Shown piece after piece: positions 62,581-64,000 of a stretch of DNA of 64,000 bases. This stretch comes from Escherichia coli (GTDB lineage: Bacteria; Pseudomonadota; Gammaproteobacteria; Enterobacterales; Enterobacteriaceae). The notes under the pieces were generated by a model, which ran no database searches, was not told where the DNA came from, and saw only the letters and a list, made by a program, of their open reading frames with translations. How positions within the stretch are numbered: the stretch's first letter is position 1; the number at the start of each line of letters is the position of its first letter. A program made the position numbers and the translations under genes. Where the stretch lies: assembly GCF_050920415.1 (NCBI RefSeq), contig NZ_CP169309.1; one strand, 5' to 3'.

Positions 62581-62593
62581 ACGTAGCAGGGAT

Positions 62594-62613
62594 CCACGTC
62601 CTTCAGGGCGTGG
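62594..62613 (+). repeat. IS right-end subterminal imperfect hairpin
   Basis: CCACGTCC-TTCA-GGGCGTGG, 14 nt after the tnpB stop. Confidence 0.65.
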
Positions 62614-62620
62614 AGGATGT

Positions 62621-64000
62621 GTGCGCCCAGCATGGGCGCGATCTTGGAGGTGAAAGTCCTCCCGCGAGCTGACCACAGCGAGCGAAAGGAAGTGCAACTG
62701 CGTGAGGGCGACCGGGCGTGGGGAGGAAGCACGGAATGAACCCGTGAGCCGATGAACAAGAATCGGATATGAGGCGCGATGGAGCAAGGCGAGCAGGCAC
62801 ATCACTGCGAAGCTTTCGTGGTCAAGTCGAAGTCGCGTAGATCCGGCGGTTGTGCGGGGAAGGATCGCGTTCTTACCTGGGGAGATCTCGCCTCATGCCT
62901 GAAAGGGCAACGTCGTAAGACGGAGCGAGAAGTCAGCAGAGGCCGTAGTAGTCAGGACTCCGACGAAGGGCCGAACGAGAAGGAAAGCCAGAAGATATGA
63001 CTCCTGACAGGACATTGCGTCAGAAGCCGGGGAAGCCCGGGCGCATCGTGGGCAGCGAGGGTGAAGCCCGCGCGGTCTCGTCGCGTGACGAAGCACTGTC
63101 GGCGAGTCATGACCCGGAAGGCTTGGGGCGAGCGGACCTGCTTCAACAGGTGCTCTCGCGCGAGAACATGGTCGAGGCGTGGAAACGCGTCAAGGCCAAC
63201 AAGGGAAGTGCAGGTGCTGATGGATTGACCATCGAGCAGACTGTTGAACACCTCAAGACTCGCTGGCCATACATTCGGGAAGCGCTTCTCAACGGGACAT
63301 ATCGGCCTCAGCCTGTGCGTCGCGTGGAGATTCCGAAACCGACTGGTGGCACTCGGGAATTGGGCATTCCGACAGTTACTGATAGGCTCATTCAGCAAGC
63401 GTTGCTACAAGTCCTGCAACCGTTGATCGACCCGACATTCTCGGAGTTCAGCTATGGCTTCCGGCCGGGCCGGAGCGCGCACGACGCAGTGCTACAAGCA
63501 CAGCGGTACGCGCAAGATGGATTCCGGGTGGTAGTTGATGTTGACCTTGAGAAATTCTTTGATCGGGTCAACCACGACATTCTGATGGACCGACTTGCCA
63601 GGCGAATCGCCGACAAAGCCGTACTACGGCTGATTCGGCGCTACCTGCAAGCTGGGATCATGGCGGATGGTGTGGTAATGGCGCGTGACGAGGGGACGCC
63701 GCAAGGCGGTCCACTGTCTCCGCTGTTGGCCAATGTGTTGTTGGACGAAGTAGATCGGGCGCTGCAACAGCGCGGTCATCGCTTCGCCCGGTACGCCGAC
63801 GACTGCAACGTGTACGTTCGCAGTCAGAAGGCGGGAGAACGAGTACTGCGTTGGATGCGCAAGATGTATGAGCAGTTGCATCTGCGCGTGAACGAGAAGA
63901 AAACCGAAGTGGGTCCGGTATTCGGGCGTAAGTTTCTCGGCTATTGCCTTCGGCGCTGGTCAGGAAACACCGTCAAGATTGCTGTTGCTCCGAAGGCGCT
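62621..64000 (+). mobile_element. Group II intron (5' end and most of the IEP ORF; truncated by window edge)
   Basis: Starts GTGCGCCCAGCATGGG, compared with Ll.LtrB GTGCGCCCAGATAGGG. ~376 nt of GC-rich structured RNA is followed by a reverse-transcriptase/maturase ORF. Confidence 0.88.
62997..64000 (+). CDS. Group II intron-encoded reverse transcriptase/maturase (partial, continues past window)
   Basis: My own translation; this ORF is not in the supplied track because no stop falls within the window. MTPDRTLRQKPG...NMVEAWKRVKANKGSAGADGLTIEQ...PKPTGGTRELGIPTVTDRLIQQA...YGFRPGRSAHDAV...DLEKFFDRVNHD...TPQGGPLSPLLANVLLDEVD...FARYADDCNVYV (RT motifs 0-5 with YADD). Confidence 0.88.
   Translation, partial: MTPDRTLRQKPGKPGRIVGSEGEARAVSSRDEALSASHDPEGLGRADLLQQVLSRENMVEAWKRVKANKGSAGADGLTIEQTVEHLKTRWPYIREALLNGTYRPQPVRRVEIPKPTGGTRELGIPTVTDRLIQQALLQVLQPLIDPTFSEFSYGFRPGRSAHDAVLQAQRYAQDGFRVVVDVDLEKFFDRVNHDILMDRLARRIADKAVLRLIRRYLQAGIMADGVVMARDEGTPQGGPLSPLLANVLLDEVDRALQQRGHRFARYADDCNVYVRSQKAGERVLRWMRKMYEQLHLRVNEKKTEVGPVFGRKFLGYCLRRWSGNTVKIAVAPKA

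Follow-up and report, generated by a model that had tools for sequence, protein, structure and literature searches.

A group IIC intron at the right end of an IS609-like element in Escherichia coli points to a lineage that homes to IS200/IS605 ends instead of terminators

Introduction

The stem-loops at which group IIC (class C) introns are known to home are intrinsic transcription terminators and integron attC sites. A locus near the end of a 64,000-nucleotide (nt) stretch of Escherichia coli DNA (here called the window) raises the question of whether the hairpins of transposon ends can serve in the same way: beside yedK, a group II intron begins a few nucleotides past the right-end hairpin of an insertion sequence (IS) of the IS200/IS605 family. 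A model's reading of the bare sequence (the sequence-only reading) had proposed that the intron either took this hairpin as its cue for homing or breaks into the extreme end of the IS. Our analysis indicates that both hold together, and we consider it very probable that a IIC intron retrohomed into the right end of an IS609-like element as a member of a lineage specialized for such ends.

Results

The insertion site

The window is 100% identical to the chromosome of E. coli MFDS1022581 (NZ_CP169399.1; locus L001, in which window position equals L001 position plus 56399), and the part of the intron beyond position 64000 was taken from that record (intron, L001 6222-8053). The window holds, on the plus strand, the 5' 1380 nt (62621-64000) of an intron of 1832 nt, delimited by comparison of occupied with empty alleles, by Rfam matches, and by the full L001 sequence. 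Its 5' end, GTGCGCCCAG (GTGCG), begins at 62621, 40-41 nt past the stop codon of tnpB (TGA, 62578-62580) and 7 nt past the right-end hairpin, from which it is separated by the spacer AGGATGT (62614-62620); its 3' end, ...CTATGCCGAT (in a longer reading, ...GGTGGTGTGGCAGGGGCGCCGCCTTGTGCTGCCCCCTATGCCGAT), falls at the window equivalent of 64452, after which only CAA, the final 3 nt of the IS, remains. A ribozyme stretch of 376 nt precedes the start codon (ATG, 62997) of the open reading frame (ORF) for the intron-encoded protein (IEP), whose YADD motif (TACGCCGACGAC) lies at 63793-63804. The positions of the stop codon, hairpin, intron start, ribozyme stretch, and IEP had been given in the sequence-only reading and are all confirmed from the sequence, as is its remark that the intron is higher in GC than its surroundings (59.1% versus 47.8% in the rest of the window). 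This contrast, together with the rarity of the intron in E. coli, suggests a foreign origin.

The same IS stands beside yedK, intron-free, in thousands of E. coli genomes. The empty alleles at this locus read ...CGTGGAGGATGT^CAACAAACAGG (...GGAGGATGT^CAAC..., the caret marking the insertion point), and those of strains N96 (402-amino-acid [aa] insQ) and 13C1079T (truncated 272-aa tnpB) read ...CGTGGAGGATGT^CAACAAACAGGTTGAAT; in the window genome, GTGCG...GCCGAT is placed between T62620 and CAA. Fixed by this comparison, the boundaries are canonical for group II introns, which have GUGYG at the 5' end (GTGCG, 62621) and AY at the 3' end (...GCCGAT, L001 8053). The intron splits T^CAA, 7 nt past the hairpin and 3 nt inside the IS, and is oriented in the sense of tnpB and of the omega RNA, the TnpB guide RNA. 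Six copies of the IS, found in plasmids and phage-plasmids with unrelated surroundings, agree through ...GGATGTCAA (...GGAGGATGTCAA; CAC in one) and diverge directly after it. The earlier placement of the intron at the IS end holds as to the right-end site and is refined in that the insertion is inside the IS and not beyond it; a right end running far past 62620, which would have spoken against that placement, is contradicted by the empty alleles and the six copies, which leave only 3 nt (CAA) beyond the insertion.

The hairpin that adjoins the site (CCACGTCC/TTCA/GGGCGTGG; 62594-62613, plus strand) has an 8-bp stem and a TTCA loop in the predicted fold and would double as the IIC homing stem-loop. 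Its stem is kept by compensatory changes in other IS copies (CCACGCCC/GGGCGTGG and CCACGTTT/GGACGTGG). The last base of the intron, T, recreates TCAA at the distal junction. The stop codon of yedK (TGA, minus strand) consists of the right-end bases T-CA of the IS, which overlaps the end of that gene; the codon spans the insertion junction (62620; window equivalent of 64452-64455, L001 8053-8055), and it survives because the intron ends in T.

Class and completeness of the intron

Domains I to IV of the ribozyme are represented by two Rfam matches above the gathering score, group-II-D1D4-3 at 62702-62872 (103.6 bits, E=6e-21) and group-II-D1D4-1 at 62890-62971 (46.8 bits). Domains V and VI were recognized by folding and by an alignment of 21 relatives, not by Rfam. 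In the predicted fold, the last 75 nt of the intron (L001) form both domains: domain V comprises 13 bp with a 2-nt bulge and the triad C-G-C, the G of which pairs with U, and it is unchanged across the 21 relatives; in domain VI, compensatory changes at seven pairs keep the helix, and a bulged A stands 7 nt short of the 3' end. Both domains match the family consensus exactly. The sequence-only reading, confined to the window, had allowed for a truncated intron lacking domains V and VI; both are present downstream, together with an intact IEP.

The IEP has reverse transcriptase (RT) and maturase (X) regions without an endonuclease domain; its reading frame (62997-64000 in the window, plus strand) runs on to the window equivalent of 64367 and is intact, encoding 456 aa (labeled ltrA in RefSeq, WP_000186915.1). 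Pfam finds RVT_1 (E=4e-40) and GIIM (E=2e-18) and nothing else. The best PDB match is the RT of GsI-IIC (6ar1; E=8e-129), aligned end to end over residues 48-455, and the next matches (7uim, from Eubacterium rectale, and 5hhj and 5hhl; E. rectale and Roseburia intestinalis) are all IIC RTs. Because of these matches, the RVT_1/GIIM-only architecture, and the CGC triad of domain V, the intron is by its sequence a member of group IIC. The copy is 100% identical in the window and the RefSeq record, and no decay is visible; it appears to be full-length and intact.

Pairing of EBS1 with the 5' exon

The final 5 nt of the 5' exon, GATGT (62616-62620, plus strand), form intron-binding site 1 (IBS1), and exon-binding site 1 (EBS1), ACATC (62799-62803, plus strand), occupies a hairpin loop in domain I (CAGGC-ACATC-ACTG); EBS1 is the exact reverse complement of IBS1, with five of five positions paired. 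EBS1 was located by a covariation scan and a listing of the pairing locus by locus. From contigs of one genome per species, 80 loci with IEP relatives were retrieved, and in the 64 that were distinct, every column of the intron alignment was compared with each position of the exon in search of complementary bases. The partners of exon positions -1, -2, -3, and -4 are intron positions 179, 180, 181, and 182, with pairing in 97, 97, 86, and 78% of loci, respectively, and other columns score far lower. The pairs vary in sequence, with GTGTT/AACAC, TTCAT/ATGAA, TTGTT/AACAA, GTTCG/CGAAC, and TTGGA/TCCAA all seen. Position -5 pairs in the E. coli copy (intron 179-183); across the family, exon positions -5 and -6 have no covarying partner. 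Because the pairing covaries across loci, EBS1 can be identified and the E. coli intron is, on this evidence, at its cognate site. The IBS-EBS pairing against the 5' exon, which the sequence-only reading had named as a check, is that of ACATC with GATGT, and with the GsI-IIC RT match and the CGC triad, it bears out the earlier guess at a class C intron homing to a hairpin.

Related introns at IS200/IS605 right ends

Introns whose IEPs are 60-69% identical to that of the window stand after a GC-rich hairpin and a T-run, that is, after classic terminators. Those with IEPs 73-86% identical and a readable 5' exon, found in Nitrospirota, Verrucomicrobiota, Acidobacteriota (Terracidiphilus), and Betaproteobacteria, all stand after a non-T-rich hairpin, in most cases with (G)AGGATGT, the intron, and CAA in order behind it. 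In the close clade, the 5' exon is readable at 12 loci from at least four phyla, and GGATGT directly precedes the intron at 8 of them; it does so in all three E. coli-type copies that have a 5' junction. Inspection by tblastn and of ORFs found TnpB ending directly upstream at four loci (L014, L016, L020, and L026) and an IS200-type TnpA upstream at two (L022 and L023). The introns associated with IS ends form one clade in a midpoint-rooted neighbor-joining tree of IEPs. Taken together, the sequences point to a monophyletic IIC sublineage, spread over several phyla, that homes to IS200/IS605 right ends instead of terminators.

Two loci carry introns in tandem, head to tail (...CCGAT^GTGCGCCC...): L019, from Verrucomicrobia (near 4456), and L089, from a betaproteobacterial metagenome-assembled genome (near 1005-1007). 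In L089, EBS1 (ATCGA) pairs with the 3' end of the intron itself (CGAT). Such tandem copies are expected if the 5' exon carries nearly all of the target information.

Copies in E. coli and its plasmids

Of 5426 complete E. coli genomes, 2 (MFDS1022581 and Z1323CEC0003) contain a full copy of the intron and 5346 contain the IS. MFDS1022581 has one intron copy in its genome and one copy of this IS on its chromosome. The order hairpin-intron-CAA recurs at four or more places that differ in their downstream flanks, namely, yedK, an integrated plasmid region, P1-like plasmids, and a relic near parC. The second chromosomal copy (L002) has a broken ltrA and adjoins plasmid tra genes. Between the two E. 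coli loci with IS and intron, identity is 92.0% in the final 400 nt of the IS and 97.9% in the intron. A chimeric IS in L002, which a tblastn identity of 60% for tnpB might have suggested, was rejected: this tnpB is frameshifted and 5'-truncated, with about 90% DNA identity.

The relic, located upstream of parC, is an unannotated, 5'-truncated, 224-bp remnant of a related IIC intron in the ygiV-parC intergenic region (L006 3001-3224; 724793-725016 in DH5alpha, NZ_CP026085.1). It is 93% identical to the 3' end of the intron, domains V and VI included, is followed by CAA(G), and occurs in 1380 of the 5426 complete genomes, K-12 derivatives among them. In P1-like phage-plasmids, an unannotated, ORF-less intron derivative of about 485 nt (L003 5029-5513; plasmid pCombat11I9-3) follows a solo IS609-type right-end hairpin with no tnpB upstream; at least 80% of its length is found in 37 PLSDB plasmid records. 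It is 98.8% identical over its 5' 415 nt, and its deletion, which joins two GCCCGG repeats, has removed the whole IEP ORF; the base of domain V is altered (CGC to AGC, with mismatches), and from its sequence the derivative probably no longer functions. A search for its empty site gave no clean example, phage P1 and its relatives matching only to L003 4993 and then differing (lydC/cin). Other E. coli plasmids have partial copies, 91-93% identical, of the maturase region or of the hairpin with the first 200-290 nt of the intron, which indicates, as far as sequence can, several older, eroded insertions of related introns.

The host IS

The IS spans 61266 to CAA. Its left end (61266-61322, plus strand) contains a subterminal hairpin, CCCCGTCC-TTCA-GGGTGGGG (61282-61301), that is kept in all aligned copies and resembles the right-end hairpin in loop and architecture. 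It is preceded by TTAT (61262-61265, plus strand), a tetranucleotide like a target or transposon-adjacent motif, which was recognized by the divergence of copies 5' of TTAY: five tnpB-only copies in unrelated contexts all diverge directly 5' of TTAY^CC(A/G)GTG. The IS, inserted 3' of TTAT and ending in TCAA ten bases past the hairpin foot, has the hallmarks of the IS200/IS605 family, with subterminal hairpins at both ends, a fixed tetranucleotide on the 5' side, and neither inverted repeats nor target duplication. Directly 5' of the right-end hairpin foot, GGAT (62590-62593, plus strand; GAAT in other copies) can be read, at what is presumably the position of the right-end guide tetranucleotide G_R of the G_R/C_R model of IS608; we take the geometry of the ends as a whole, this GAAT/GGAT tetranucleotide included, to be that of IS608. 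By its sequence, the IS is an IS609-like member of the IS605 group of the IS200/IS605 family, the IS609-type right end consisting of the hairpin and AGGATGTCAA.

The tnpA gene (61323-61754, minus strand) encodes an intact Y1 (HUH) transposase of 143 aa (Pfam Y1_Tnp, E=4e-41, profile positions 1-121 of 121; IS200/IS605 family transposase in RefSeq). The tnpB gene (InsQ-like; 61762-62580, plus strand) encodes 272 aa and has lost the OrfB_IS605/RuvC core through an in-frame internal deletion of about 390 nt (130 aa): Pfam finds only HTH_OrfB_IS605 and Cas12f1-like_TNB, and the tnpB (insQ) of strain N96 at the same locus has the full 402 aa and also OrfB_IS605. Because the same truncated 272-aa allele is found beside yedK, without the intron, in many E. 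coli genomes, the tnpB deletion is, judged by these alleles, older than the intron insertion.

The presumed scaffold of the omega RNA (also right-end element RNA, or reRNA), comprising the 3' end of tnpB and the right end (62453-62620, plus strand), was placed by analogy with the ISDra2 reRNA (PMC8612924) and by two sub-threshold Rfam matches: RAGATH-18 at 62507-62550 (29.5 bits, below the gathering score of 44.9) and sot0042 at 62576-62614 (L001 6177-6215; 17-19 bits against a threshold of 88), the 3' part of the latter model ending on the right-end hairpin. The sot0042 family, a Salmonella "sense overlapping transcript," may itself be an IS200/IS605 omega RNA.

The 8-mer GAGGATGT, identical to the right-end spacer with IBS1, also occurs at 61193-61200, about 65 nt upstream of the left end of the IS, where no hairpin adjoins it; chance alone would give about two matches on the two strands of 64 kb. 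The stretch from fliE to the IS (window, about 58500-60400; L001 2127-3987) contains emrE, a frameshifted ybcL, and ybcM, which we take to be genes of the DLP12 prophage region of K-12; it may be a small island bounded by the IS. The GC skew of the window, +0.020 on the plus strand, fits the top strand of the IS, which is the sense strand of the intron, as the lagging-strand template and is too weak to serve as evidence.

Discussion

Our results argue for retrohoming of a IIC intron into the IS right end by a route that can be outlined as follows. The intron ribonucleoprotein would recognize the subterminal right-end hairpin as a class C stem-loop motif, EBS1 (ACAUC) would pair with GAUGU, 3-7 nt after the stem, and reverse splicing would place the intron between T62620 and the CAA that ends the IS. 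As the IEP lacks an endonuclease domain, cDNA synthesis is presumed to be primed by the nascent strand at a replication fork. As the intron lies in the sense orientation of tnpB, it could be cotranscribed with the tnpB/omega-RNA transcript and spliced out of it, and the predicted ligated exons would read ...GGAGGAUGU-CAAUAAACAGG (...GGAUGU-CAAU...).

A different account would make IS and intron one composite element, a group II counterpart of the IStrons, which TnpA moves by "peel and paste" with the intron as cargo. The intron does lie inside the IS, with CAA kept distal to it, its final T recreates TCAA at the distal junction, and hairpin, intron, and CAA recur together in four or more contexts whose downstream flanks differ. 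Cotransposition, however, predicts equal divergence of both parts, whereas the IS parts of the two E. coli loci are 8% diverged and their introns 2.1%; because the IS parts differ more than the introns, independent retrohoming into two already-diverged elements is the better account of this pair. Intron-free copies of the IS, moreover, outnumber occupied ones by thousands to two, the same intron clade is found with very different IS200/IS605 members, tnpA-only elements included, and EBS1 matches the junction, as retrohoming predicts. The distance between hairpin and cleavage site (the linker length), which is critical in IS608 (PMC3597680), would also be 1.8 kb, and we regard a composite element as very improbable. 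Hardly credible is a chance ectopic retrotransposition beside a hairpin by an intron with no special tie to IS200/IS605 ends. For IIC introns, a stem-loop and a short IBS1 suffice, so that many hairpins qualify, and some relatives do sit at imperfect sites, with four of five positions paired in L027, L077, and L091; the match here is nonetheless perfect, and all 12 readable loci of the clade follow a non-T-rich hairpin of the IS-end type, with GGATGT shared by 8 of them and by all three E. coli-type copies. Less likely is a hairpin that itself moves along with the intron, as use of an alternative 5' splice site might allow, given that the 3' exon keeps the IS-terminal CAA and that most relatives keep the IS sequence GGAAT 5' of the hairpin; such a route is still a candidate for the P1-like derivative.

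More weight, although not the greater part of it, goes to the view that the intron arrived by homing and is now an inert fossil, unspliced or immobile, whose effect is limited to inactivating one already-defective IS. The genome has a single intron copy, its chromosome a single copy of the IS, and tnpB is truncated at the locus; the other E. coli copies are all degenerate (ltrA is split in L002, the P1-like derivative has lost the ORF and part of domain V, and the third is a 224-bp relic), and IIC introns are often poorly transcribed. Set against this, the full-length IEP of 456 aa aligns with the GsI-IIC RT end to end, domains V and VI equal the family consensus, EBS1 is intact, and no decay is visible.

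Several observations weigh against retrohoming by a right-end-specialized lineage, or limit how far that explanation can be carried. At six loci with a right-end-type hairpin, neither tnpA nor tnpB was detected within 400 nt upstream. The homology to the IS in P1-like plasmids begins exactly at the hairpin, so that the target may not be an IS end at every locus. The clade comes from a single neighbor-joining tree built without bootstrap or outgroup. The best column for an EBS3-IBS3 pairing, intron position 220 (G/A), is paired in only 61% of loci, and the Rfam model of domains V and VI, RF00029, was matched neither at its gathering score nor at E<=10. We infer splicing and mobility of the intron from its apparent intactness alone, and the block to TnpA and the splicing dependence of the omega RNA considered below are extrapolated from IS608 and ISDra2.

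The IS608 transposase recognizes its cleavage tetranucleotide through pairing with bases at the foot of the hairpin. At the DNA level, the insertion would have moved the corresponding tetranucleotide, TCAA, 1.8 kb from the hairpin and put TGTG in its former position; by analogy with IS608 we infer that right-end cleavage would be blocked and this copy of the IS immobilized. At the RNA level, the guide RNA of TnpB in ISDra2 consists of the 3' end of tnpB and the right end, to which about 16 nt of flanking sequence are joined (PMC8612924), and an unspliced transcript of the occupied IS would have intron sequence in the guide position; splicing would restore the order scaffold-CAA-guide. The effect on the omega RNA is moot at this locus because tnpB already lacks its RuvC core, and since tnpB was a deletion allele before the intron arrived, only the effect on TnpA could matter here. 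For the lineage as a whole, it is conceivable, though we think it unlikely, that these introns parasitize IS200/IS605-TnpB transposons at the boundary of scaffold and guide, with both excision of the element and its guide RNA dependent on splicing.

The intron shares much with the IIC introns that home to terminators, such as B.h.I1 of Bacillus halodurans, GsI-IIC of Geobacillus stearothermophilus, and O.i.I1: a ribozyme of about 460 nt without the ORF, a domain V with the CGC triad, an IEP in which RT and X domains are present and an endonuclease domain is absent, a site a few nucleotides past a stem-loop, and a short EBS1-IBS1 pairing without IBS2. Unlike theirs, its stem-loop is the right-end hairpin bound by TnpA and not a terminator, its IBS1 is GATGT and not a T-run, and its site lies within a transcribed mobile element, 3 nt from the end. 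It resembles the IIC-attC introns (e.g., S.ma.I2) as a IIC sublineage that has moved from terminators to a folded single-stranded DNA (ssDNA) recombination hairpin, and both targets serve a strand-specific ssDNA recombinase or transposase. It is not one of them: its 5' exon is an IS right end, and integron context is absent. The target belongs to an HUH/Y1 element and not to the tyrosine recombinase system of attC, sequences and clade differ, and the processes at stake are cleavage by TnpA and the omega RNA of TnpB, not the expression of cassettes.

IStrons such as CdISt1 (PMC4227781, PMC10690162) likewise combine a self-splicing intron with a TnpA/TnpB transposon, at a boundary that overlaps the omega-RNA region, which makes splicing and the formation of the guide RNA interact. 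Their ribozyme, however, is a group I intron, integral to the IS200/IS605 or IS607 element and cotransposing with it, and here splicing would restore the scaffold-guide junction, not destroy it; identity with an IStron was rejected because the ribozyme is group II and the IS copies were invaded independently. Group II introns encoding RT-HNH proteins, also nested in IS605 elements, have been described in cyanobacteria (Kapitonov et al. 2016, PMC4810608), but these encode HNH, are not class C, and were not reported to be hairpin guided or end specific. The survey of introns in Enterobacterales by Leclercq and Cordaux found class C only in Dickeya and Sodalis and none in E. coli. The intron is apparently not one of the E. 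coli introns E.c.I1 to E.c.I6, as its full-length match is confined to MFDS1022581 and Z1323CEC0003 and E.c.I6 has been reported in CFT073, ED1a, S88, and APEC O1. A search of the full-text literature, whose coverage excluded most subscription journals and the group II intron database, yielded no account of IIC introns that home to IS200/IS605 ends.

The practical effect at the E. coli locus is small, in that one already-defective IS copy is probably locked in place. Beyond it, our combined results point to the IS200/IS605 right-end hairpin as a third, apparently undescribed class of IIC target, after terminators and attC, and if this is true, these introns would bring to group II a conflict like that of the IStrons. 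A link would thereby arise among three systems that all rely on folded single-stranded DNA: intron biology would gain a conserved, multicopy, and horizontally mobile target, and the TnpB/omega-RNA field would gain a natural case in which a retroelement parts the scaffold from the guide and splits the transposase cleavage site.

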